A stretch of DNA of 46,795 nt from a virus. Its lineage: Duplodnaviria; Heunggongvirae; Uroviricota; Caudoviricetes. Below, one piece after another: positions 1 to 46,795 of the stretch. A model generated the notes under the pieces. The model searched no databases and was not told the DNA's origin. It saw only the letters and a list, made by a program, of their open reading frames with translations. Where the stretch lies: IMG/VR virus record IMGVR_UViG_2740892118_000012, positions 1 through 46,795 of that record. One strand, given 5' to 3'. The first letter of the stretch is position 1. The number at the start of each line of letters is the position of its first letter. A program made the position numbers and the translations under genes.

Positions 1-3000
1 ATGAAAAAAAATTCTTTAAATGTGATTTTGGATACTGTTTTCTCGGCGAAAAGCATCAATGGTGAGAAATCTCATTCTTTTATATCGTATAAATTAGTTA
101 AAGCTGTAGAAAATTTAAGTGGATATGACTTGGATCTTTTCCTCAATCGTGCGATAAACCATCCTAACTTCCCTAGCAATATGGATTTTTCCTTACGAAC
201 AGTTTTTACAATTGAACAATCTAACACTATTGAATTTAAAAATTTCATTTCAGAATTGGTGTGGTACAAGCATATTTTCATACGATATAAAAAACACCTT
301 AATGATATATTATCGGCAAAGGCAAGACTTGAGAAGTTAGTTCTTTTCGCAACAGGTAGTGAATGTATAAAATATTTAGATGAAATAGAAAGCTCTTATG
401 GAGTTAGTTTTTGGAGCATTGATGCTCGTCTCTTAATAAATAAAGTTTTGCTTAACGAAAGCAATGGGTTATATGTTAAATCAATTCTATCTAAAACCCA
501 CTATAAACTTACAGAGTTTATGTTACAGCAGCTATTATTTAAGCATCAAGTACATAACTTTGATGATTTTTCAAAGAACCTTATAAAAATACTAGATGAT
601 ATGCGCACCACTCAAGATAATGGGTATGCTAGAAATTTAGCTGATGGTATTTCATCCTTTTTAATACCTTTAGAGTTTGATAAAAATATAGATCTCAAAA
701 ATAGAACCTTAGCACCATTTACCAACCTTCCTTTAATAGATCAATTTATCATATTCCAGAGAACTATAAGCGATTTACAACTTCATGGAAATGGTTTAAG
801 AAATAGCGAGTTAAGCTTAATTGCAGAAATTAACAGCTTTATTAAAAATAACTATCTCAACAATATTTTAGATGGAAGAGAGCGTAATATAGAGAATATT
901 GATGAACACTATAAAAGTGTTATTCGACGTTATACTATAGGTGATTATACTGGGTGTATTTCAGAAATAAATTCAGTTCGAACGCAGAAGACAATTTTGC
1001 CATTAATTGAAATATATGCAAAATCCCATGTGTATCTTGATAAGAAAATTTCAGACTCATGCATATTCAATAAATTAACAAACTGGCTTATAGCAATTAT
1101 AAAATGCGACAGACGCGCTGGAAAATACATCGATGAATTTGAACTTTTAGCATCTAAGATATATTTCAATTCAAATTCATCCTCTCTATTCTTCACATTA
1201 TATAATTTAATAAGTGATAACCATAATAAATTAAACATATCTCGTATAAATCTAACCAAAAATGGTTCCTTTGTAACATCCCTTCATTTGAATATAACAA
1301 TCAAGGAACTATGGACTGAACTTGGAATAAAAGAGAATGAGATACCAAAATATCGATTATTTAAATTCAAAGACCTAGCAAATCTATCCTTTGATGAAAT
1401 CAAAAAACACTACGAAGTATACAATGATAATGTAATAATTCGCTCTGAATATTTAAAAGATTATACTAACTTTTTATTAGAAAATGAAAAGTATGAATTA
1501 TGCATCCAATTTATAGCTGAAAACTGCATCGGCAACCCCGCAAATTATTACTACTTCCCAATCCGAAAAATAATTGATTTTGTAAAAGACAATATTTTTG
1601 ACTATGCAAGCGTGGCCTTATCTATATTGATAGATATTTTTGTCAAAAGCACATCAAACACTTCAAATGAGCTTCTTCTCGAAAGTTATGAGAGTTTAGT
1701 AGATATTTCAAATATTAATAGGCCATCTACCCATTATTGCTCTAAGCAATTAACTCCATTAGAGCACTATTTCCTTAAGTTTATCTGTATACCTTCCGTG
1801 ATGGATTCAGACCCTTCATTCACAGGCACGGACGACTTGAAGAAGGAAAGAATTGCTATTATAGATCTATTATTAAAAGAACACGATGATGCAGATTTAT
1901 TGAAAGAGAAAGACGAAATTATAGATGAAATATCATTCGAAGAAATAAAAACAAAATATGAGACAGGAAAAATATTTGTTGATATAGAAAATTTAAAACG
2001 GGCAAAGCTTGAAAGATACAGATATTATTTTGATGCACTTAAGGATTCGCTTATTCTCGGACTAGAACCACCTGAAGACTTTGCTTTAATTACAGACGAT
2101 GGGAATATCACAGCCATTCCATCTGGCGATACAAACTCTATAATCCATGAACTTCTAAAAGAACTAATCTCCGATTTTGTTAAAAATGAAAATTACGGTC
2201 TTGATAAATATTTGAGTGCAGATATACGGCATGGTGTTTTTGAAAATCAACTCAGATCAAGTGCTGAAAAATCGCAATTAATAACTGATATGGATGGTAC
2301 TGGACAGTATTCGAAAAGCAATTTAATTATTGAGACATATCCATTAATTAACCCTATTATAAATAACGAAATAGGGACAGCAATAGCTGATTTCTCTTAT
2401 CACTTTGACATTGAATTGGCTAAAGCCAATTCCTGGTTCAATGTCAAGACAATGCTCATAAGTGAATCACAGCAAGGTATGATTGATTTCCTCATTTCTG
2501 TTGATATGTTTAATTCATTTAAAGCAGCAGTTTCAAATCAAGCATCTTTTGAGAAGTTTTTTGACGCTTGTATTAACTTCATGTGGGAAAGAACGTTCAG
2601 ATGTTTGAATGATATTAAAGAGCGATTGCATTACGAATTTAAGAGGAATATTTTAGATTTAATTGCCACTCTTAGGCATCAAATTGATATCTATAGAAGA
2701 CGTAGTTCCATGAGAGAAATCCAGGAGAAAATTGACCTCTTGGCCGAAAGCATTAATAAAGAAATTGCAACAGTCTGCGATTGGTTAAATGTACTTGAGT
2801 ATAACGAGGAGAAAATATATAAAATATCATCCGTGATGCAGGCATGTAGGAAAACTTTTTTTAATATACACCATTGTTCTGATGATGCTATCGTTTTTGA
2901 TTCAATGTATCATGATGATGAACCAAAATTATCTTATAAAGAAGCCAAGCCTCTAATCACATCAATAATAACAGCGTTAAACAATGCTATGGCCTATGGT

Positions 3001-3276
3001 AATAAAAAAATCTTTATCAGTATTAAGCCTGAAGAAAAGTCATGGAAAATAACCATCAGAAATTTGATAATTGAGACAAAGAACAGAACTACCAACCAAA
3101 TTTTACAAGAGATTGATGATAAAATAAAACGAGGGGATAATAGTCTAAATATAAAAGAAGGCGGAGCTGGAATATATAAAATATATGATTTATTATGTTC
3201 ATTACCGCAAAGATTTAATGTGAATCATTGCATCCAAAATAACGAATTCATTTTAAATATTGAGATAAAGAAATGA
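1..3276 (+). CDS. Large sensor-like protein with C-terminal histidine-kinase-type (GHKL) ATPase region; first gene of a Detocs-like three-gene phosphorelay cassette (DtcA-like). ATG at window position 1, so the N-terminus may be truncated by the window edge
   Basis: ORF 1..3276 (1091 aa). C-terminal ~200 aa carry an N-box-like 'ITALNNAMAYGN', a glycine loop 'EGGAGIYKIY' and a candidate H-box 'ATLRHQID'. No Walker A P-loop seen. Stop overlaps next start (ATGA at 3273-3276). Strongly AT-rich. Confidence 0.6.
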   Translation: MKKNSLNVILDTVFSAKSINGEKSHSFISYKLVKAVENLSGYDLDLFLNRAINHPNFPSNMDFSLRTVFTIEQSNTIEFKNFISELVWYKHIFIRYKKHLNDILSAKARLEKLVLFATGSECIKYLDEIESSYGVSFWSIDARLLINKVLLNESNGLYVKSILSKTHYKLTEFMLQQLLFKHQVHNFDDFSKNLIKILDDMRTTQDNGYARNLADGISSFLIPLEFDKNIDLKNRTLAPFTNLPLIDQFIIFQRTISDLQLHGNGLRNSELSLIAEINSFIKNNYLNNILDGRERNIENIDEHYKSVIRRYTIGDYTGCISEINSVRTQKTILPLIEIYAKSHVYLDKKISDSCIFNKLTNWLIAIIKCDRRAGKYIDEFELLASKIYFNSNSSSLFFTLYNLISDNHNKLNISRINLTKNGSFVTSLHLNITIKELWTELGIKENEIPKYRLFKFKDLANLSFDEIKKHYEVYNDNVIIRSEYLKDYTNFLLENEKYELCIQFIAENCIGNPANYYYFPIRKIIDFVKDNIFDYASVALSILIDIFVKSTSNTSNELLLESYESLVDISNINRPSTHYCSKQLTPLEHYFLKFICIPSVMDSDPSFTGTDDLKKERIAIIDLLLKEHDDADLLKEKDEIIDEISFEEIKTKYETGKIFVDIENLKRAKLERYRYYFDALKDSLILGLEPPEDFALITDDGNITAIPSGDTNSIIHELLKELISDFVKNENYGLDKYLSADIRHGVFENQLRSSAEKSQLITDMDGTGQYSKSNLIIETYPLINPIINNEIGTAIADFSYHFDIELAKANSWFNVKTMLISESQQGMIDFLISVDMFNSFKAAVSNQASFEKFFDACINFMWERTFRCLNDIKERLHYEFKRNILDLIATLRHQIDIYRRRSSMREIQEKIDLLAESINKEIATVCDWLNVLEYNEEKIYKISSVMQACRKTFFNIHHCSDDAIVFDSMYHDDEPKLSYKEAKPLITSIITALNNAMAYGNKKIFISIKPEEKSWKITIRNLIIETKNRTTNQILQEIDDKIKRGDNSLNIKEGGAGIYKIYDLLCSLPQRFNVNHCIQNNEFILNIEIKK

Positions 3277-3722
3277 AAATTCTTCTTGTTGAGGATATTG
3301 AATATAAGCGTGATAAGGTGATCGGTTTACTAGAGTCTATTTCTGCCGATGTATCAGTCGATGTAGCTAAATCTTATGTTTCGGCAGTAAATTCCGCAAC
3401 CAGTAAAACTTATGATCTTATAATATTAGATATGAGCCTTCCCACTTACGATAAGGGGCCTAATGAAAATGGAGGTCGCTTCAGAGTGTACGGAGGGAAA
3501 GATATTATTCGCAAGTTAATGAGAGGAAAAGAGCATCCAGTAGTTGTGGTTTTAACACAACATACAACTTTTGGTGAAATTGGTGAGCAAAAAAATACTG
3601 ACACTCTATCACAAGAGTTGAATGCTTTAATGGGATCAAAATTTATAGGTATTGTAAAATATGACTCAACTAAACCTCAATGGAAAGATGAAATAAAAAA
3701 AGTCGTACAGGATTTGTTATGA
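3273..3722 (+). CDS. Stand-alone response-regulator receiver (REC) domain protein (DtcB-like)
   Basis: 149 aa. REC signature: N-terminal 'ILLVEDIE' acidic pocket, 'DLIILDMSLP' with phospho-acceptor Asp, 'VVVLTQ' Thr, downstream Lys. ATGA overlap with both flanking genes. Confidence 0.7.
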   Translation: MKILLVEDIEYKRDKVIGLLESISADVSVDVAKSYVSAVNSATSKTYDLIILDMSLPTYDKGPNENGGRFRVYGGKDIIRKLMRGKEHPVVVVLTQHTTFGEIGEQKNTDTLSQELNALMGSKFIGIVKYDSTKPQWKDEIKKVVQDLL

Positions 3723-4882
3723 TTAAAATATTAATAGTTGATGACAATAAATCTAGAATTGAAAAGCTAAAATCTAGCTTAACTGAACTCATCACAAAAA
3801 ACATGATAAGGATTGATGAGAAATATACAAGTGACGCCGCAAAAATCGCGCTCAAGTTAAATCAATATGATTATTTAATTCTTGATGTCTTTTTACCTAA
3901 AAAAGATAACTATAGCCCAGATGAAAGAAATGGATTAGGTCTTTTAAAACAAATAAATTCAGATTCTAAATTTTACTCTCCAAAAAAAATAGTTGGCATA
4001 ACTGCATATCTGAATGATATATCCAGATATGAATCCGAATTCAGAGAATATGCTTCAATTATATTCGAGGCTCGACGTAATGATACTGGATGGCTTGAAT
4101 CACTCAAAAAAATCATTGAAAAGGATGTTGAATCTCAAGTAAGTTATAATCTCAATGAAAAAGATAGTGTTTTAATAACAGTACACGGTATAAGAACCTA
4201 CGCACCTTGGCAAAATACCATAGAAGAAAAAATAACCAATATATCAAATAAATTTAACTATATAAAATTCAATTATGGTTTTCTAAATATTCTTTGTTTT
4301 TTATTCCCTCCGACTAGACATCTATTTGCAAGAAAAATAATCCAAGACATACGAATTACAGTGGAATCAAATAAGAATAAAAGAATTTATATTATTTGTC
4401 ATAGTTTTGGTACCTACCTTGTATATTGTGCCTTAAGTAAACTGACACATACGGATGCAAAAATTGAATGTTTAATTTTTTCTGGTAGCGTATTAAAACG
4501 TACTACCTCATTGAAAACATTAAAGCAACATTGTAATGCAATAATAAATGACTGTGCTGTAAGTGATTATATTTTATTACTATGTAAAATGTTAGTCATT
4601 GGCTTGGGCGATGCAGGCAGAAAAGGGTTTATTGAGCCAAATGATGGTGTTTTCATTAACCGCTATTTTAAAGGAGGACATTCAACTTACTTCGAAGATA
4701 AAGATTTCATAGAAGTGAACTGGCTTCCTTTAATTTTTGACAATAAAAATATCGCGTCACGAGATGAAAGAAAAAATCATATTTTTTCCGATGTCACCAA
4801 TGCTTTGCAAAATATAATTGAATATTTAAAAATACCAATATGGTTATTTTTTTCTTTTTTATTGATAGCACTGGTATTATAA
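3719..4882 (+). CDS. Receiver (REC) domain fused to alpha/beta-hydrolase-like (serine esterase/lipase-type) domain with C-terminal hydrophobic anchor; putative effector (DtcC-like with non-PNP effector)
   Basis: 387 aa. N-terminal REC ('ILIVDDNK', 'DYLILDVFLP', 'IVGITAY'). C-terminal part has 'LITVHGIRT' (oxyanion-hole HG), 'IICHSFGT' (nucleophile elbow x-H-S-x-G), 'DAG' and 'GGHST' (candidate acid/His), ending in hydrophobic 'IPIWLFFSFLLIALVL'. Confidence 0.65.
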   Translation: MIKILIVDDNKSRIEKLKSSLTELITKNMIRIDEKYTSDAAKIALKLNQYDYLILDVFLPKKDNYSPDERNGLGLLKQINSDSKFYSPKKIVGITAYLNDISRYESEFREYASIIFEARRNDTGWLESLKKIIEKDVESQVSYNLNEKDSVLITVHGIRTYAPWQNTIEEKITNISNKFNYIKFNYGFLNILCFLFPPTRHLFARKIIQDIRITVESNKNKRIYIICHSFGTYLVYCALSKLTHTDAKIECLIFSGSVLKRTTSLKTLKQHCNAIINDCAVSDYILLLCKMLVIGLGDAGRKGFIEPNDGVFINRYFKGGHSTYFEDKDFIEVNWLPLIFDNKNIASRDERKNHIFSDVTNALQNIIEYLKIPIWLFFSFLLIALVL

Positions 4883-4905
4883 TATCACTGCACATTAAAA
4901 ATCAT

Positions 4906-4933
4906 ATTGGAGCTTCCCTCATAAAGCTCCAAT
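4906..4933 (+). terminator. Perfect 10-bp inverted repeat hairpin (ATTGGAGCTT-N8-AAGCTCCAAT) downstream of the cassette; possible terminator or protein-binding site
   Basis: Seen directly; lies 24 nt after the stop at 4882 in a convergent AT-rich intergenic region; no clean U-run follows. Confidence 0.3.
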
Positions 4934-5361
4934 ATAAAACACCATCATTTCAATAGTACCTGCAGCTAATTAAAACTAGTCAACCGAAAACATTAATCAC
5001 TTTAAACTTTAGTATGCACTTATACTTTCTTAATAATAGAAAAACACTTACAAATAAATTAATCATGTCAATCTCCGTAACTACAACCTCGGAAAGTATG
5101 TAAACAGGAATCATTACTGAAAAAAACACGATTTCAGCAGAATTCTAGAAATATCCTGTGCTGCTGCCGATACCAACTTTCGTATATACTACCCTTCACG
5201 TTCCTTCTCGTTTTTATAAAACTATTCATTTATAACTATCAATAGGCATCATAACCAATGTAAGTGTAAGTACTGGTGAACGAGTGTCAATGGAGTTAAA
5301 AGTATCACTTCATCCTGCTAAATATAAGTTATCCTACGTTTTAATATACTAGAACTCAAAA

Positions 5362-6327
5362 TTAGAATGGTTTGTTAATATTAATAGATTTACCATTGAT
5401 ATCTTTTGACACCTTAAAAAAATCTATACCTTTTATCCACTGACATAACTGTTGTAGTGTTTCCATTGCCTGTTCTAACTCATTTTTTTCAATTCTAACG
5501 CCCCCATGATGGCTACAGGAATTTAATAATTCCTGAGCTAGAGTGATGTCATTCTTCAGCTTATTAGGCAGACCGAGAAAATTAATCACCCTCGACAAAC
5601 TCCCAAGCATTAACTTTTGATAGTCTTCTTCAAATTCCTTTTCAGCCCTAATATTTACTAACATCAAAACATACTCAAGATAACGCCGTGCTGTATTTCC
5701 CTTTTCTTGTAACGCATCTCTATCATACTCTTTAATATCACTCAATTCCTGTAGTAGAAAATCAAACTTAGCTATTGCCAAGTTAAGATTGATGTTATGC
5801 ATTAGCAATTCGGATGCATGATTGCTAACAGGTACACGATTTGGTGGACGTATCATTATAGCCGTCGTGTAACAATTTATATTTGGTATCTGTATAAATT
5901 CCTCACCGGAACGCGTAACACGTTGAACTTCTACCATATAGTGGCCAAATTTATCAATCTCATATGACCGACAACGAGCAGAATATAATTTATTTAGCTT
6001 TTTCCTGTCTTGATAATATGATTTTATTAATACAAAAAATGCTCTTTCGTGCTCAATAATTAAAATAGTCTCTATTGAAGCATGGTACAACCATCCGTTA
6101 TTCCATGTTAATTCAAGCTGTCTATTTCCATCTTTAAAATCAATTTTAGTTATACGATCCCAACTTCCTCTATCAATAAAATCGACAATATTGCGCCCAA
6201 ATCCTTGATAGTTATTTTTAACAATGTGCAATAGTACTGCCTTTATTTTATCCCAATCATGAATTTCTTTTTCATATTCACCATTTAATATATTCGTTAA
6301 ATCACTGTGAAAATTTTCATATGTCAT
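5362..6327 (-). CDS. Hypothetical protein (321 aa), AT-rich island cargo adjacent to integrase; no recognised domain
   Basis: ORF with ATG start at 6327; AT-rich codon usage like the cassette; convergent with the cassette and co-directional with the integrase. Confidence 0.55.
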   Translation of the reverse strand: MTYENFHSDLTNILNGEYEKEIHDWDKIKAVLLHIVKNNYQGFGRNIVDFIDRGSWDRITKIDFKDGNRQLELTWNNGWLYHASIETILIIEHERAFFVLIKSYYQDRKKLNKLYSARCRSYEIDKFGHYMVEVQRVTRSGEEFIQIPNINCYTTAIMIRPPNRVPVSNHASELLMHNINLNLAIAKFDFLLQELSDIKEYDRDALQEKGNTARRYLEYVLMLVNIRAEKEFEEDYQKLMLGSLSRVINFLGLPNKLKNDITLAQELLNSCSHHGGVRIEKNELEQAMETLQQLCQWIKGIDFFKVSKDINGKSININKPF

Positions 6328-6428
6328 AAGTATCTCTTTTTAGATAAAATTGGATTTCGACAAGTAGACGTTGATAACAACAAGACTGGTTAGATAATTT
6401 AATCATTGATGCAACGTTTAGCGTTGAA

Positions 6429-7613
6429 TCAATTGACATCATTACCAATTCTTCCAATGCAATCAGCATACCACTGCATCATCTCCCTCCGCCCTTCCAG
6501 ATACAAAGCATGGTTGTACGTCCCACGAATCGCATTCTTATCGACATGCGCAAGCTGGGTTTCAATCCATGCCGTATTGAACCCTTCCTCGTGCAAAATC
6601 GTACTCATCGTGTGACGGAAACCATGCCCCGTTACCTTCCCCGTATACCCAATCCGTTTGAATACCTGATTCATACTCGCTTCACTCATCGTCTTGCGGG
6701 GATCATTTCGCCCTGGGAATACCAGTGGATATTGCCCAGATATCACCTTGAGTTGTTGTACGATTTCCAGCGCTTGGGTAGATAGGGGGACAAGGTGAGG
6801 CCGTTTCATCTTCATACGCTCTGCAGGTATTTCCCACACTGCTTTTTCAAGATCAAACTCACTCCAGAAAGCACCTCGTAGCTCGCCAGTACGAACTCCT
6901 GTAAGGATCAGCAGACGAGCGGCAAGAACAACTAACGGGCTTCCTGTGTAGCCTGCGAGAGCTTTAAAGAAGTCTGGTAACTCCTCAACAGTAAGGAAGG
7001 GATAATGCTTCGATTCATGCCCTGACATTGCGCTGGTTAGATCCGCTGCAGGATTGTATTCCGCACGACCGGTAACGATGGCGTAACGAAAGACTTCACT
7101 GCAACGCTGGCGAACCTTCTTGGCCTTCTCTGTCGCGCCACGGCTTTCCATTCGACGTAGCACATTCAGCAGAACCAAAGGCTTGATGTCATTCACCGGC
7201 AGTTGGCCAATATAAGGGAAAATATCTTTATTGAAGGCTTCGATAATGTCGGAGGCATAACCTTCTGACCACCGGCTCACCTTCGTTCCGTGCCATTCAA
7301 GTGCCACAGCCTGAAACGTATTATTGAGCTGCACATCGCGAACCAACTTTTCTTCTTTCTTGGCAAACGATGGGTCGATACCTTCGGCCAGCTTTTTCTT
7401 GGCTTCATCACGCAGTGCCCTCGCTTGTGCAAGGGACACTGCCGGATAGACACCAAAAGCCATACGTTTCTCTTTTCCATTGAAGCGATATTTCATCCGC
7501 CAGTATCGAGAACCAGAAGGAACAACTTCAAGATACAAGCCTGCACCATCTGCTAGCTTGTAGGCTTTCTCTCTGGGTTTAGCAGCATCTACCTGTCGAG
7601 CATTAAGCTTCAT
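6429..7613 (-). CDS. int: P4-type tyrosine integrase (site-specific recombinase)
   Basis: N-terminal 'GLYLEVVPSGSRYWRMKYRFNGKEKRMAFGVYPAVSLAQAR' (P4-int N-terminal domain); C-terminal catalytic 'HGFRHT' and 'RGTYNHALY'. ORF track starts at a GTG at 7652; ATG at 7613 has RBS AGGGAG ~9 nt upstream (ATG at 7622 also possible). Confidence 0.9.
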   Translation of the reverse strand: MKLNARQVDAAKPREKAYKLADGAGLYLEVVPSGSRYWRMKYRFNGKEKRMAFGVYPAVSLAQARALRDEAKKKLAEGIDPSFAKKEEKLVRDVQLNNTFQAVALEWHGTKVSRWSEGYASDIIEAFNKDIFPYIGQLPVNDIKPLVLLNVLRRMESRGATEKAKKVRQRCSEVFRYAIVTGRAEYNPAADLTSAMSGHESKHYPFLTVEELPDFFKALAGYTGSPLVVLAARLLILTGVRTGELRGAFWSEFDLEKAVWEIPAERMKMKRPHLVPLSTQALEIVQQLKVISGQYPLVFPGRNDPRKTMSEASMNQVFKRIGYTGKVTGHGFRHTMSTILHEEGFNTAWIETQLAHVDKNAIRGTYNHALYLEGRREMMQWYADCIGRIGNDVN

Positions 7614-7776
7614 TGGGGGCATCTCCCTGGACCGAACACAGAATGCCCCCACTTATGCCCCCAACTGCGACTTGATTTCGGTTGAGTCCAGTTGATAACA
7701 GGAGATAAGATACGGGCCAGAAACCGCAGTATACGGGCTTTTAGTTGATTTCGGTAGACTTGGGAAGAGTTTGAAA

Positions 7777-7822
7777 TGGTGCCGATAATAGGAGTCGAAC
7801 CTACGACCTTCGCATTACGAAT
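7777..7822 (-). tRNA. Partial tRNA-Thr (anticodon CGU, thrW-like) 3' fragment of 46 nt, anticodon loop to CCA end; not an intact tRNA gene; attachment-site core repeat
   Basis: Reverse complement reads TTCGTAATGCGAAGGTCGTAGGTTCGACTCCTATTATCGGCACCA (anticodon loop, T-arm GGTTCGACTCC, CCA end). Identity to the recalled tRNA-Thr sequence stops 5' of this; flanked by phage DNA on one side. Confidence 0.75.
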
Positions 7823-8053
7823 CTGTAGCACCAATCATAACTATCTGTTTTAGCAAGCATTAACCGCATTCACCAAGCAATAGTTGATGGCACAAACAGA
7901 AAGTTGATGCATGATGTTGTCATGTGTATGTCACAAATACGGCACAACGATCTTCAAACATGTAGCCACTCAGCATAGAAGAGCACAAAGCCTTGCAATC
8001 CAGTGCAAAGCTTTGTGTGTCTCAGTTTTGTTTCATCGGTAATTATGTGTTCG

Positions 8054-8353
8054 CTACGATGCAAGAATCCATACCAATAAGCATCCGATAATTGGGAAAG
8101 AAAAATCCAACAGACTTCCCACATCCCACACGCGTGGATCAAAACCTCCCCACCACGGCATGTTGATGCGTTTCCCTTTCCCAAACTTTTCTATCCAGCG
8201 ATATTCTGCCTGGGTGTGTTCACGCGCAATGAAGAACGTACAACCGGCTATCGCACCGTAAGCCCAGTTTCCGGTAGAAAGGCCAACCAGTACCTGAGCC
8301 GCAAAAGCGCAAAGCGAGTGAAGAAATGGAGTGACATCAATGCTCTTAATCAT
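8054..8353 (-). CDS. Small hypothetical membrane protein (about 3 hydrophobic segments) immediately downstream of tailspike
   Basis: 99-aa ORF, start overlapping tailspike stop; hydrophobic stretches '[12 protein letters not shown]', '[13 protein letters not shown]', '[14 protein letters not shown]'. Confidence 0.35.
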
Positions 8354-10407
8354 GAAACTTCCCCATTGGTTGAAAATATGGCTCCTCCAACGCCAAGTGT
8401 ATTTCGTGTTGCGCTCAACCTCAGAGGGCTGGAGTCAGAATTAGAATATCCTGTAGCAGAAATAAAAGATCCTCCACTAATAGTCAACTGCGGAACATCG
8501 GCTATATCTGAATAAGTTCTGTCAGCAACAGTATTATTTATAGCCACATGTGATCCAAAAAAACTTCTTATTGTTTGGTTTTTAACTTTACTTCCTTCAA
8601 TGGTTATCCTACTACCACAGTCGGCAATAAATCCTGAATCTGCATCCAGCGTTGCATTCATAAAAGAAGCTTCAGATCTCTCTACATCAATCCATCTAAT
8701 ATCTTTTGTGGGATTTGCACCAAATACATGACAAATATTAGAGTTAAACCTTACACCATCTTGGAGGTGCATTAATTTTTTTATATCTGTACCCCATAGC
8801 CTTGGAAAATTAACAGATGCTCCTGCATGGCAATCAAATCCCAGCTCAACCCCTGAGATATCTACAGCCTTTCCGGAAATAACAGCACCAGTGTCTGCAT
8901 TAACGGCTGTTCCACAATTGCGCATATCATTACCAGCAACATCAACACAACCCGCACCATCAATACGCACACCAAGTGCACATCCATAAAAACCTTTTTC
9001 AATATTTGGTTCAAGGACTTTACCACTTGTTTCTGCATCACTTTCTTCAACGTCATGTCGTCTTGCATCAACATATGCTGTATGAATGCACGTTAATCCA
9101 CGATATGAGCAATGTATAGTTTTATGGTCGCGTATATTAACATTTGAACCATCTCTTACATTCCATCCTATATAACAATAGCTTGCACTTGACCCCTGAA
9201 AATCTGCTTTAACATTATAAATACAATTAACTGACGCAACCGTACTCTCTGTGCACCGTTCAAACTTACTTACAGGCATTGATGCCTTGACATTATTTAC
9301 CAGTTGCAGGGAAGAGTATCTGCTATAAGAAAAATCACATACGTAATACCCTTCTGGCATATATGCAGCAACACTTTCCTCATCAGGAGCACATCCGGTA
9401 TGATATGCACTAATTTTTGCACCAAAACTACCATGAATTCCAACGTAGAACTTTCGAGCACCTGAATACGGATAGAAATTAAGTTCAGCTTTTTGAGTTA
9501 CAATAAATGCACAAACATCGCTATCATCTCTATTTTCTTCAATCTGAATAGCAAATACAGGACTTTTTGCTGCATCGCAAATGTAAAATAAATATTTGTA
9601 TTCGTAATACGTCCTAACAGTTTTAGTAAACAAACTGGTATCAGAGAAAACCACTGAGTCTTCTGATATTATTTTAATCCATGATAAGTCACATCCTGCT
9701 GAAATTTCTATTTGCTCATTGAGCACAAAACCGGAAAGAATTTTAATTATGCAAAAATCAATGCCATTTTTCCATAGTGGACGCAGTGCAACAGCTGAGT
9801 TCAGAGCATCACTAATAGATTTAAAATTACCATATTCCCCAACTGTTATTGTGAATGCATACCTGGAATTAAATACTGCGGCACTCTCTCCAGAGTTAAT
9901 AGCTGCAGATATCATGTCATAATTTGATATAAAATCATTTGGCGTGATTATTTCTGCGTTTTTATTGTGCTGTGTTCTAAGTTTTGAATTTACATGAACA
10001 CTTTTAACTGCAATACGGGAGTCGTCAACAAGTATTTCATTACCCTCTGTTGCTAACTCTTGTCTTAACTGATCCGGATCATACTTCAGCACATTCGGAA
10101 AATAGAACTGCTGCACACCGTACGCATCATAAACAGCCATCGAATGGCCTTGCACGGTAACGAATTTGGCAATCTGTCCGTTATATACCGGATATCCAGC
10201 AGCGTTAATGATGATTGGCTGTGCAACAGGAACGTGAGAACCATCTTCGTTCTCAACATAGACCTGAATCTGGTTTTCTGGATTTACCGGGTCAGTGTCA
10301 ATTTTACCGATATAAATTTTGCCATTGGCTACGGCTTTAAAAGAACGAGCCATAGTGAAGAGTTGCGAAGGCATGCTCACTACAACATTGGCTGTAATGT
10401 CTGTCAT
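8350..10407 (-). CDS. Tailspike protein (P22 gene 9-type N-terminal head-binding domain, divergent receptor-binding domain)
   Basis: N-terminal ~110 aa '[13 protein letters not shown]...[21 protein letters not shown]...NVLKYDPDQ' closely matches recalled P22 tailspike N-terminus; the remaining ~570 aa do not. Confidence 0.85.
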
Positions 10408-11984: not shown

Positions 11985-11997
11985 TTATATCTTATTT

Positions 11998-13845
11998 TTA
12001 TTGCTGTTCTGCTGTAATTTGGCTTGAAAGTATAGGGCGTATCGCATTTGCAGCATTATTTAGCGCTCTTTCATAGGCTGGTGTTCCTGCTTTGGTGTTT
12101 GCCAAACGTAAGAGAGCATTCCTTGCTGCTTTTGACTCATACAAGCGCATCATTGCACCGAAACCAGCCTCAAGCCCCATTGATACGCCAAGAGTCGCAG
12201 TTGCGCCAATCGTCCTTATCCTGTTGGCTTGCGATTGCCCCGTCTGAGTTACTACATTTGCGGTGTCTGACCTTGCTGTTTGCTGTAGAACTTCATGAAG
12301 AGAATCAAGCTCTTTCATGTGCTTTCCAGAAAAAATAGTGTTGTAAATTTCACCGCCTGACTGAGATTTCAGCTTATTAACTTCAGTGATGAACTTGGCT
12401 GGAGAGTCACCGGCCTTTTCCGCTATTTTGCTGACATAAGCTGCACGCATAGCATCTTTCCCTTTATTATCCAATGCGCTCCAGATTCGTTTCACGTCAG
12501 ATGGTTTTCTGCTTAATACAACGGTATTTATAAGTTCAGGACTGGCTTCACTGCTTGCCTTGTTGAGCTTGTTAGCAATGTTTTTATTAAGCACCTTATT
12601 ATAAACGTTTGCATAATCGGAATTTGCTTTAAGGTATTTTGCTGCGTCTGATGCACCGAGGTTTTTTGCAACTGCGTTACGAAGATCTTTTGACATTGCA
12701 TTCTCTACCATATTGGTAGCTGCTTTTGCCTGGTTTGGGAAGACCATAGCATCTCCCTGAACATTAGATCTAAATGCTGTTCTGTGCTGACGCAAGAGAT
12801 CAAACGTAACATCCAAATCAGTTGCAGGGTTTGCTAATTCTTCACGTAGGTTACGCAAGGATGTAAGCAGGCTTTGATTGGCAGACGTCCCAAGCCGTTC
12901 CTGTCTTGCGATCGCTGTATTCAGAGCATTCATGGTATTTGTGGTATCAACTGCGGCATTACCCATTTTATTGGTGACGTCATTGATAACAGCGCCAGCG
13001 GCATCCTTCCGCCCCCTTAACGTGGTGGTAAGAGATTTCACCACATCATCAGGGTTGTACTCACCAAAACGGTCAAAATAATTACTTACCAGCTTACTAC
13101 GCGTTGCATATTGCTCCGCTCGCTTTGAGCCTGTCCCGAGCAAAGCCCCCTCGGCATCCTGAGTTAGGCCGCGAGTGAAAGCATTTTTCGGCGGGATAAC
13201 ATCAGATGTCATTGGTGTCACGCCCATCGATTCTGATGTGGCAATTTTCTTCGCCACTTCTGGCGCAATATCACCTTTTATAGCCGTTATTCCACGCCCT
13301 ATTCCCTTTGCTGCTGCGGAAAGAACCCCCTGAGCGGCAAGGTTAACTCCGGCATTTTTAGCTGCATTTTGTGCGAAATCGCCTTTCTGATTTGCGGCCT
13401 CTGCCAGTGATCCAATAGCCATGCTTCCTGCCGTTCCAACTCCTGGAACTAAATACCCGCCAATTGTTTCTCCAGCTTGCGCATAAGGGTCTGTTGGTCG
13501 ATCGACTGGACGATAGACATCGTCCAAAACCTTGGGGCCACCAAGCCCCTGGCTGATTGCATTAATCAGACTTGCGCCGCCCTGCAATACGTCAAATGGT
13601 ATGTTTACCAGACCACGACCAGCCTGTTCCGCAATTTGCCCTGCACTTTGACCACCAGTGAGCCAATCGCCAGCTTGTTGCATCAATGATGGTTCTTCCC
13701 GTGTTGGTGCATTATTGGCCTGATTAACTGTTTGTTGCTGAACAGCCTGACCAGCAAAATACTCATCAATGGCGGTGCCAATATCTTCGGTGCTCGTACC
13801 ATCAGGAAAGGTAAATGTCTTACCGTTTGCAGTTACTTTCATCAT
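11998..13845 (-). CDS. Ejection/DNA-injection protein (P22 gp16-like)
   Basis: 615 aa at the position and size of P22 gene 16, last gene of the 4-10-26-14-7-20-16 block; stop/start overlap with gp20. Confidence 0.7.
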
Positions 13846-45410: not shown

Positions 45411-45758
45411 GTGGAAGAAGAAATCTTCACTCGTGAAGAGGCGGCGTCGTATCTGAAGGTAGACAAAGGCACTATCACGCAGTGGATACGAAGTGGACGA
45501 CTTCAGGCCGCAAAGATAAATCCAGATAAACCTAAAAGCCCATATCGCATTTGCAAGTCAGACTGCATTGCGGCGCTTAAGTCTGTGAGACACAATAGCG
45601 CGGTGAATGCGGTTGATGTGCAGGAGGTTAAAGCATGTCAATCAAACTACGCGGTGGCACGTGGCACTGCGATTTCGTCGCGCCAGATGGATCAAGAGTT
45701 AGACGCTCTCTTGAAACATCGGACAAAAGGCAAGCGCAAGAACTTCACGATCGTCTGA
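45411..45758 (+). CDS. xis: Excisionase (HTH DNA-binding, Xis)
   Basis: 'TREEAASYLKVDKGTITQWIRSGRLQAAK' HTH; immediately upstream of and overlapping int, as in lambda/P22. The 3' end in the overlap is uncertain. Confidence 0.6.
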   Translation: MEEEIFTREEAASYLKVDKGTITQWIRSGRLQAAKINPDKPKSPYRICKSDCIAALKSVRHNSAVNAVDVQEVKACQSNYAVARGTAISSRQMDQELDALLKHRTKGKRKNFTIV

Positions 45759-46795
45759 AAGCAGAAGCGTGGAGAGTAAAAAATCTCGGGGAATCACCGA
45801 AAAAGCTATTCAAGGAAGCCTGCATACGGTGGCTTCGTGAGAAATCGGATAAGAAGTCCATTGATGATGACAAGAGCATTATATCGTTCTGGATGTTGCA
45901 CTTCAGAGAAACCATTCTCTCAGACATAACAACAGAAAAAATAATGGAGGCGGTAGACGGGATGGGAAACCGCCGCCATCGCCTGAACTGGGAAATGAGC
46001 CGGGACAGGTGTTTGCGACTTGGTAAGCCAGTGCCGGAGTATAAACCAAAGCTGGCAAGCAAAGGAACGAAGACGCGGCATCTGGCAATACTTCGCGCTA
46101 TTCTCAATATGGCTGTTGAATGGGGATGGCTTGACAGGGCGCCCAAAATATCAACACCACGCGTTAAGAATGGACGAATCAGATGGCTTACAGAGGAGGA
46201 ATCGAAGCGCCTGTTTGCAGAAATTGCTCCTCATTTCTTCCCTGTGGTCATGTTTGCAATCACGACAGGCCTTCGCCGTTCCAACGTTACAGACCTTGAG
46301 TGGTCACAGGTAGATCTGGATAAGAAAATGGCATGGATGCACCCTGATGAAACAAAAGCTGGCAATGCGATCGGAGTTCCTCTTAACGAAACCGCATGCC
46401 AGATATTAAGAAAACAGCAGGGTCTCCATAAGAGATGGGTGTTTGTCCACACCAAACCTGCCTACCGAAGCGACGGAACAAAAACAGCAGCGGTAAGGAA
46501 GATGAGAACCGACAGCAACAAGGCATGGAAGGGAGCGTTAAAGCGGGCAGGCATTAGCAACTTCCGCTTCCATGACCTGAGGCATACCTGGGCAAGCTGG
46601 CTGGTTCAGTCCGGTGTCTCTCTTCTTGCACTTAAAGAGATGGGAGGATGGGAAACTCTCGAAATGGTTCAAAGATACGCCCACCTTTCAGCCGGGCATC
46701 TCACCGAGCACGCGAGCAAAATCGATGCGATTATAAGTCGCAATGGCACAAATACGGCACAAGAGGAGAACGTAGTTTACTTAAATGTGAGGTAA
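45635..46795 (+). CDS. int: Tyrosine integrase (P22 Int-like, lambda integrase family)
   Basis: 386 aa; '...KRQAQELHDRLKAEAWRV...KSIDDDKSII...RRHRLNW...FRFHDLRHTWASWLVQSGVSLLALKEMGGWETLEMVQRYAHLSAGHLTEHA' matches recalled P22 Int with catalytic R, H-x-x-R and Y; stop at window end. Confidence 0.9.
   Translation: MSIKLRGGTWHCDFVAPDGSRVRRSLETSDKRQAQELHDRLKAEAWRVKNLGESPKKLFKEACIRWLREKSDKKSIDDDKSIISFWMLHFRETILSDITTEKIMEAVDGMGNRRHRLNWEMSRDRCLRLGKPVPEYKPKLASKGTKTRHLAILRAILNMAVEWGWLDRAPKISTPRVKNGRIRWLTEEESKRLFAEIAPHFFPVVMFAITTGLRRSNVTDLEWSQVDLDKKMAWMHPDETKAGNAIGVPLNETACQILRKQQGLHKRWVFVHTKPAYRSDGTKTAAVRKMRTDSNKAWKGALKRAGISNFRFHDLRHTWASWLVQSGVSLLALKEMGGWETLEMVQRYAHLSAGHLTEHASKIDAIISRNGTNTAQEENVVYLNVR

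Follow-up and report, generated by a model that had tools for sequence, protein, structure and literature searches.

A mobile, solitary gene of the thrW island encodes a protein with a predicted HEPN fold and an RloC-like catalytic constellation

Here we analysed a 46,795-nucleotide stretch of Caudoviricetes DNA (IMG/VR record IMGVR_UViG_2740892118_000012, the whole of which we call the window) and focused on an AT-rich gene on its minus strand that encodes a protein of 321 residues (5362..6327, ATG start, stop codon included). The open reading frame (ORF) list and the RefSeq annotation of Escherichia coli SMS-3-5 agree on this coding sequence (CDS), and RefSeq labels the product, WP_000220589.1, a hypothetical protein. 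The gene lies 101 bp downstream of a P4-type tyrosine integrase gene on the same strand (6429..7652) and is convergent with a three-gene cassette on the plus strand (1..4882), from which it is separated by a 479-bp non-coding gap. A preliminary description of the window, made from the letters alone, had placed the gene in this way, co-directional with the integrase, convergent with the cassette and as AT-rich as the latter. All of this holds: the GC content of the gene is 0.326 (GC3, at third codon positions, 0.273), in the range of the cassette genes (0.29-0.35) and below that of the integrase (0.494) and of the remaining window (0.479).

The ORF is no chance frame but a true gene under purifying selection, because an identical protein is encoded on 783 contigs, its homologues form 36 clusters at 90% identity, pairwise ratios of nonsynonymous to synonymous substitution (dN/dS) within the family are 0.08-0.13 at dS 0.7-2.0, and RefSeq annotates it. 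The clusters come from Escherichia, Salmonella, Klebsiella, Serratia, Pectobacterium, Enterobacter, Proteus, Providencia, Pantoea, Buttiauxella, and Aeromonas. A profile search against 1.8 billion representatives extended the family to 125 representatives at 50% identity.

AlphaFold2, run on a 30-sequence alignment of the family, predicted two domains with confidence (pLDDT 87, pTM 0.82). In this model the C-terminal domain (residues 166-321; 5365..5832, minus strand) is an up-down alpha-helical bundle with the HEPN fold, and it is a predicted RNase, if so probably of the anticodon-nuclease type. The N-terminal domain (residues 1-165; 5833..6327, minus strand) consists of two helices followed by a beta-rich core. 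It returned no confident fold match and no ATPase match, and we infer that it is a candidate sensor or autoinhibitory domain. Searches of Pfam, PADLOC 2.0 and PHROGs produced no meaningful match to the protein or to 85 distant relatives, a sequence search of the PDB with both family profiles produced none, and a search of the viral folds in BFVD gave none at E <= 0.001. Pfam detected no P-loop or ABC domain, no receiver and no kinase domain in the protein. Generic HEPN domains (AF0298, 2hsb; the HEPN-MNT toxins 7ae2, 5yep, and 8xdj; Csm6) share just 3-14% identity with it. Unlike the HEPN-MNT toxins and Csm6, the gene has no adjacent MNT antitoxin, the protein has no CARF domain, and the motif Arg is absent.

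Some distant members of the family are longer, at approximately 470-510 residues (P0068, P0070, P0080, P0082, and P0087) or 570-612 residues (P0047, P0089, P0116, P0125, and P0143). The extension is either N-terminal, of approximately 190 residues, with weak Pfam matches to DUF3775 in four members, or C-terminal, of approximately 270 residues, without a recognisable domain. All of these extended members come from short metagenomic contigs.

The preliminary description had recognised no family motifs, and this was not borne out, as three are strongly conserved: GxxIVDFxDxxNWD (residues 44-57), NTxRRxxE (211-218), and NxxSH (269-273). Conservation was counted over 85 representatives whose identity to the window protein averages approximately 20%. 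Three residues, R214, E218, and H273, are the only ones kept in 85/85. In the C-terminal domain N211, K222, Y236, G242, L244, N269, S272, D274, and G276 are near-invariant, as are P162 and K163 at the domain boundary. The N-terminal motif (G44-D57; 6157..6198, minus strand) reads GRNIVDFIDRGSWD in the window protein, and its D49 and D57 are near-invariant within the family pattern G-x3-V-D-F-x-D-x2-N-W-D. The C-terminal signature of the family is N-T-x-R-[RK]-x2-E-x3-K ... [A/L]-N-x2-S-H-[DE]-[ST]-G. Its first part is NTARRYLEYVLM in the window protein (N211-M222; 5662..5697, minus strand) and holds R214 and E218; its second part is NSCSHHGG (N269-G276; 5500..5523, minus strand), in which H273, the His of the HEPN Rx4-6H motif, follows S272.

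HEPN domains are defined by Rx4-6H with a polar residue after the Arg and by an upstream acidic residue, typically in E-x3-[KR] (PMC3710099). The upstream element is present throughout the family, with E218 invariant and K222 in 83/85. The Rx4-6H element is incomplete: H273 is invariant and the polar residue that would follow the Arg, N269, is kept in 81/85, with Ala or Leu at the Arg position itself (268). The protein is thus not a canonical Rx4-6H HEPN. The absent Arg weakens the HEPN claim but excludes neither membership nor activity, because some HEPN families keep the His, lack the Arg and have another conserved basic residue elsewhere (PMC3710099). The window protein and the enterobacterial clade to which it belongs differ from the wider family at two more positions, both adjacent to catalytic residues: K222 (Met; 5662-5664) and D274 (His; 5506-5508).

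The conserved residues of the C-terminal domain resemble those of the anticodon nucleases PrrC and RloC. The PrrC/RloC signature was described by Davidov and Kaufmann (2008; PMC2610378) as Arg-X3-Glu-X36-52-His, often with a Ser before the His, and R692, E696, and H737 are each essential in RloC, with R320, E324, and H356 as the PrrC counterparts. The 321-residue family has the same triad in R214-x3-E218 ... S272-H273, where the Arg, Glu and His are invariant and the Ser is present in 79/85. The Salmonella homologue has an AAA_13 protein nearby that matches PADLOC PDC-S06 and PrrC, and relatives of this neighbour are named “wobble nucleotide-excising tRNase” by some sources. In a profile comparison, NTMRNILEY ... 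NRHSHSDG of the neighbour aligns to NTARRYLEY ... NSCSHHGG of the family, the former segment also aligning the NTARRYLEYVLM motif with the PrrC/RloC Arg-X3-Glu. This PDC-S06 gene shares the NT-x-R-x3-E and N-x2-S-H motifs of the family. We then compared a 114-sequence alignment of the family C-terminal domain with 23 RloC-like C-terminal domains, the latter alignment built from full-length matches, using hhalign. The two matched with a probability of 68% (P 4.7e-5, score 36.3, 76 columns), and the two motifs were aligned in register. The controls, a reversed template and 20 column-shuffled ones, scored at most 16.9 with probabilities of at most 0.7%.

Taken together, the protein very probably has the HEPN fold with a PrrC/RloC-like catalytic constellation. 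Like RloC and PrrC, it has Arg-x3-Glu ... Ser-His set in N-T-x-R-x3-E and N-x2-S-H, belongs with them in the HEPN superfamily, and is encoded by accessory, mobile, defence-linked genes, one homologue lying 7 kb from an RloC-like gene. Unlike them, it has no ABC ATPase, Rad50-like coiled coil or zinc hook; its 165-residue beta-rich domain occupies the place of the ATPase, it is smaller (321 residues vs approximately 400-800), and its gene has no obligatory linkage to type I restriction-modification (R-M). Because the defining N-terminal ABC ATPase is absent, the protein is not a PrrC/RloC member and is just the carrier of a related nuclease domain. The architecture appears to be an undescribed build on a known nuclease module.

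The convergent cassette is a neighbour of this gene and not part of it. Matches to the PADLOC models PDC-M60 A/B/C and to Pfam identify it as a Detocs-type three-gene system (1..4882, plus strand), and it is built as Detocs is, from a kinase-like DtcA (1091 residues), a receiver-only DtcB (149 residues) and a receiver-effector fusion, DtcC (387 residues), in which the receiver is joined to an alpha/beta-hydrolase with a hydrophobic tail. The preliminary description had considered an accessory or regulatory partner of the cassette, and a fourth Detocs component acting as accessory, regulator or anti-autoimmunity factor would be suggested by the position of the gene next to dtcC, its convergence and similar AT-richness, and the presence of the cassette in 17/17 complete E. 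coli genomes that have the gene. We consider such a role very improbable. When DtcA, DtcB, DtcC, and the integrase were used as tblastn queries against all fetched loci, matches occurred in the E. coli thrW island only, and nine independent loci (Salmonella, Aeromonas, Proteus, Citrobacter, Serratia, Enterobacter, Providencia, Buttiauxella, and a second E. coli clade) showed no DtcA/B/C homologue at a distance of up to 10 kb. Where Detocs has decayed, the gene has been kept. Locus L006 (11446-12057) has lost dtcA, dtcB and the 5' half of dtcC by deletion and retains the last 203 residues of DtcC, and in L003 (11446-13681) dtcC is split by an insertion sequence (IS); the 321-residue gene and the integrase are 100% identical in both. 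The convergent orientation also means that the genes are not one operon, the protein has neither a receiver nor a kinase domain and matches no PADLOC model, those of Detocs included, and a three-gene Detocs of Enterobacter cloacae whose effector is an alpha/beta-hydrolase is reported to protect E. coli by itself (preprint 10.1101/2023.01.24.525353). Detocs shares with this gene an integrase-proximal hotspot and an equal AT-richness, but the two have no homology, do not co-occur beyond this island and are separate systems.

The gene also appears without any other constant partner. Nucleotide similarity between loci ends no more than approximately 20 bp from the CDS (77 bp downstream in Serratia), and the neighbours of the family gene differ at every locus. 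Since similarity ends at the CDS borders, there is no conserved partner gene or RNA, and comparison of locus flanks together with scans of the gaps for ORFs, Rfam families, promoters and terminators found no conserved adjacent antitoxin, small ORF or RNA. The gene moves alone, independent of Detocs.

The version in the window is rare and patchy, present in 17/5426 complete E. coli genomes and always at thrW. A scan of species-representative genomes gave one locus only. Elsewhere the family occupies satellites, islands, integrative and conjugative elements (ICEs) and plasmids, with defence genes nearby in 4/10 distinct contexts. In Salmonella the homologue is on a plasmid-like contig near ParDE and TacAT, 7 kb from the RloC-like PDC-S06 gene described above. 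On the Citrobacter and Serratia ICE it is flanked by an orphan DNA methyltransferase and ArdC, and Septu PtuA/PtuB and a type I R-M system are 3-9 kb away. In Enterobacter it lies between tonB and a P2-prophage remnant, with an NsnA-like GmrSD_N gene 2.4 kb away. The Providencia homologue directly follows an Ogr/Delta gene, and its region also encodes a primase-like protein with a Toprim domain and a member of the dCTP-deaminase family. The Buttiauxella homologue is in a serine-recombinase island.

A paralogous clade (WP_000205213.1, 318 residues, approximately 46% identity) is more widespread, found in 306/5426 complete E. coli genomes, mostly O157:H7. It is the terminal gene of a P4-like satellite at thrW, with the primase gene on one side and the flanking core genes on the other (for example, at 11992-12948 of locus L029 in O157:H7 PV15-279), and the same P4-like element with the paralogue was found in IMG/VR. 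According to a 2026 survey (PMC13586616), P4-like satellites have a minor defence hotspot in the primase-att slot. The novel P4 systems of that survey, Bandua, Aernus, Toga, Reve, Crouga, and Hailong, were considered as candidates and set aside, as their architecture is unlike that of the 321-residue protein. The main hotspot of the O157:H7 satellite, between integrase and psu, contains ABC-three-component-system genes, a frameshifted gene and an IS1203 insertion.

Two of these loci have further features. In Salmonella (L008, 11220-12566) a 448-residue RelA_SpoT protein without a PADLOC match is convergent with the homologue across a 278-bp gap, and it may be toxSAS or CapRel-like. The Enterobacter locus (L007; 13201-15000 and 1801-3600) has several AT-rich islets with a GC content of 0.33-0.42 against a background of approximately 0.55-0.60. 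One islet holds the NsnA-like GmrSD_N gene and a 201-residue protein without a Pfam match, and the islets adjoin a truncated P2-like baseplate cluster.

Earlier computational work had flagged the protein. In Table S10 of DefensePredictor (PMC13092281), WP_000220589.1 is listed with those predicted defence clusters of the E. coli pangenome that lack characterisation (cluster_id WP_000205214.1), with a mean log-odds of 8.5 (range 7.7-9.0) vs the authors' strict cutoff of 4. The sole remote match listed for it is PD-Lambda-5_A, with an HHblits probability of 61.7 over 38% of the protein. The text and tables of that study give no domain assignment, mechanism or test for WP_000220589.1, the family motifs are absent from its supplementary sequences, and a literature search for the accession found no characterisation. 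Another row of Table S10, WP_001469928.1 (318 residues, 957 bp, an E. coli hypothetical protein), has rank 5, a log-odds of 14.8 and no remote match. Its length fits the second clade of the family, of which it may be a member.

The closest functional precedent is HepS, a HEPN protein without a partner from the Salmonella prophage Gifsy-1, which was shown to act by itself as an abortive-infection anticodon nuclease once a phage tail protein triggers it (PMC13043305). This precedent shows that one HEPN protein without a partner can make up a whole defence system. The two are alike in being single, mobile-element-borne HEPN proteins with no conserved partner, HepS being constitutively silent. They differ in that HepS has fewer than 250 residues, a HEPN domain alone and a canonical R100-x4-H105, whereas the 321-residue protein has two domains and a non-canonical motif; no sequence similarity between them was detected.

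On balance, we favour a role for this gene in anti-phage defence by a somewhat better than even margin. The fuller explanation, in which it is autonomous, single-gene cargo of mobile defence hotspots encoding an RloC-like HEPN abortive-infection RNase, has in our view about an even chance of being correct. More tentatively, the protein could be a tRNA anticodon nuclease specifically. It is likewise conceivable, and we would put it no higher, that it is a minimal, ATPase-independent relative of RloC and PrrC in which the approximately 165-residue beta-rich domain with VDFxDxxNWD replaces the Rad50-like ATPase as infection sensor. The suggestion in the preliminary description of Abi-like (abortive infection) or toxin cargo fits the HEPN fold, the triad, the rarity, the mobility, the hotspot contexts and the DefensePredictor result, and the function itself stays a prediction. 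In the mechanism we envisage, the N-terminal domain would hold the nuclease inactive, for instance through occlusion or by blocking productive HEPN dimerisation, and would sense a cue derived from the phage. Once triggered, the HEPN site would cleave RNA without a metal cofactor, the likeliest target being tRNA anticodon loops, as in PrrC, RloC, and HepS. Cleavage would then halt translation and phage production, aborting the infection. In this island, the protein would act parallel to Detocs rather than through it.

Several points weigh against a defensive RloC-like nuclease. The link to RloC is one profile-profile match of moderate probability (the 68% given above), and the comparison was picked after the motif resemblance had been seen. 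The spacer between the Glu and the His has a mode of 53-54 and a range of 50-83, above the published 36-52, and the PADLOC PrrC model, Pfam AAA_13 and all Pfam HEPN models give no match to the family. The canonical HEPN Arg is replaced by Ala or Leu across the whole family, and the window protein has in addition M222 for the family Lys of E-x3-K and H274 for the Asp after the catalytic His (D274 in 71/85, Glu in 9 more). WP_000220589.1 is absent from the DefensePredictor tables of tested units, and no experiment on it is reported there. DefensePredictor uses neighbouring genes, and its score is therefore not independent of context. In Serratia, Aeromonas, and Proteus (3/9 distinct contexts) the homologue is a solitary AT-rich islet between core genes with no defence gene nearby. 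A solo nuclease would also need some means of being kept non-toxic.

Among the other explanations, a selfish toxin or weapon ranks as the most plausible, followed by a non-catalytic binder, anti-defence cargo and the Detocs accessory role already considered. As an addiction module, or as a weapon between elements (satellite against helper, or plasmid exclusion), the protein would still be an RNase, but under selection for stabilising or favouring the element that carries it and not for protection against lytic phages. We think this unlikely, as there is no conserved adjacent antitoxin gene or RNA, homology stops at the CDS borders, no small conserved ORF or Rfam match was found, and the solitary chromosomal islets in three genera leave nothing to stabilise. 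A little less probable still is a catalytically inactive HEPN-like protein, comparable to MtlR or to nucleotidyltransferase HEPN domains, that binds RNA, a nucleotide or another protein and so serves in regulation or as an adaptor. HEPN domains without the motif are probably non-catalytic binders (Anantharaman et al. 2013, PMC3710099), and the Rx4-6H Arg is missing family-wide, with Lys222 and Asp274 missing from the window protein as well. Against this, R214, E218, and H273 are invariant at approximately 20% overall identity, as is typical of a catalytic site; the three match the triad essential in PrrC and RloC; and some HEPN families that keep the His without the motif Arg use another basic residue.

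Counter-defence is a further option for cargo of mobile elements. In the Citrobacter ICE the methyltransferase on one side of the homologue is of the N6/N4 type and ArdC is on the other, and antirestriction genes occur further along in the thrW island. A nuclease triad of the HEPN type is not known as a means of anti-defence, the family gene sits in slots of P4-like elements that carry defence systems, and the DefensePredictor score is a defensive one, all of which make this option improbable.

If the protein is indeed a defensive RloC-like HEPN nuclease, it would found a new single-gene family in the HEPN/anticodon-nuclease branch of bacterial immunity, and the PrrC/RloC nuclease module would work with a regulator wholly different from an ABC ATPase. 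It would also provide a new sensor domain and a one-protein immune sensor-effector on P4-like satellites and integrase islands, with a paralogue that is fixed across much of the O157:H7 lineage of E. coli. In the genomes that have it, the paralogue could shape sensitivity to phages, therapeutic phages included. The family is small, and its three invariant residues are obvious targets for mutagenesis. The analysis thus offers a domain-level and mechanistic hypothesis for a protein that machine learning had flagged and that had been left uncharacterised.

The segments on either side of the gene are non-coding. The 101-bp spacer that separates the stop of the integrase from the start of the gene (6328..6428, minus strand) gave no sigma-70-like match on the coding strand at the threshold of the promoter scan, so read-through from int into the gene is possible. 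This spacer is not conserved at other loci of the family. The convergent gap (4883..5361) contains no ORF of more than 49 residues and no Rfam match. It does contain a terminator-like hairpin on the minus strand (4902-4937) with a 15-bp stem and a T-run, approximately 20 bp past the dtcC stop. At 479 bp the gap is unusually long, and the approximately 420 bp beyond the hairpin could be a long 3' untranslated region or a remnant.

Positions 1-7822 of the window are identical to the thrW (tRNA-Thr) island beside proA in 17 complete genomes, that of E. coli SMS-3-5 among them. The SMS-3-5-type island has the order thrW, integrase, 321-residue gene, cassette and IS3 element, beyond which are antirestriction, RadC, DUF987, and CbeA/CbtA genes in a CP4-6-like layout. 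Its integrase (minus strand) has the Pfam domains Arm-DNA-bind_3, Phage_int_M, and Phage_integrase, and the RefSeq start of this gene is an internal ATG, giving 394 residues. Alignment with the SMS-3-5 locus (L025) showed that the 3' 46 nt of thrW remain as an attachment-site (att) remnant at the island end (7777..7822, minus strand), where ARAGORN found no intact tRNA. From 7823 to 46795 the window is a P22-like prophage with a head-binding-domain tailspike, injectosome translocase, portal, coat, large terminase, and DnaB-like helicase, and its own integrase is at the far end (45635-46795). Since the thrW remnant lies beside the island integrase and the prophage begins at 7823, the window holds two elements in tandem at thrW. 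Within the prophage, the tailspike gene (8350-10407) is AT-rich past its conserved P22 head-binding N-terminus, with a GC content of 0.35-0.38 (approximately 8500-10000) vs approximately 0.48 for the prophage, and this drop suggests a recently swapped receptor-binding module.

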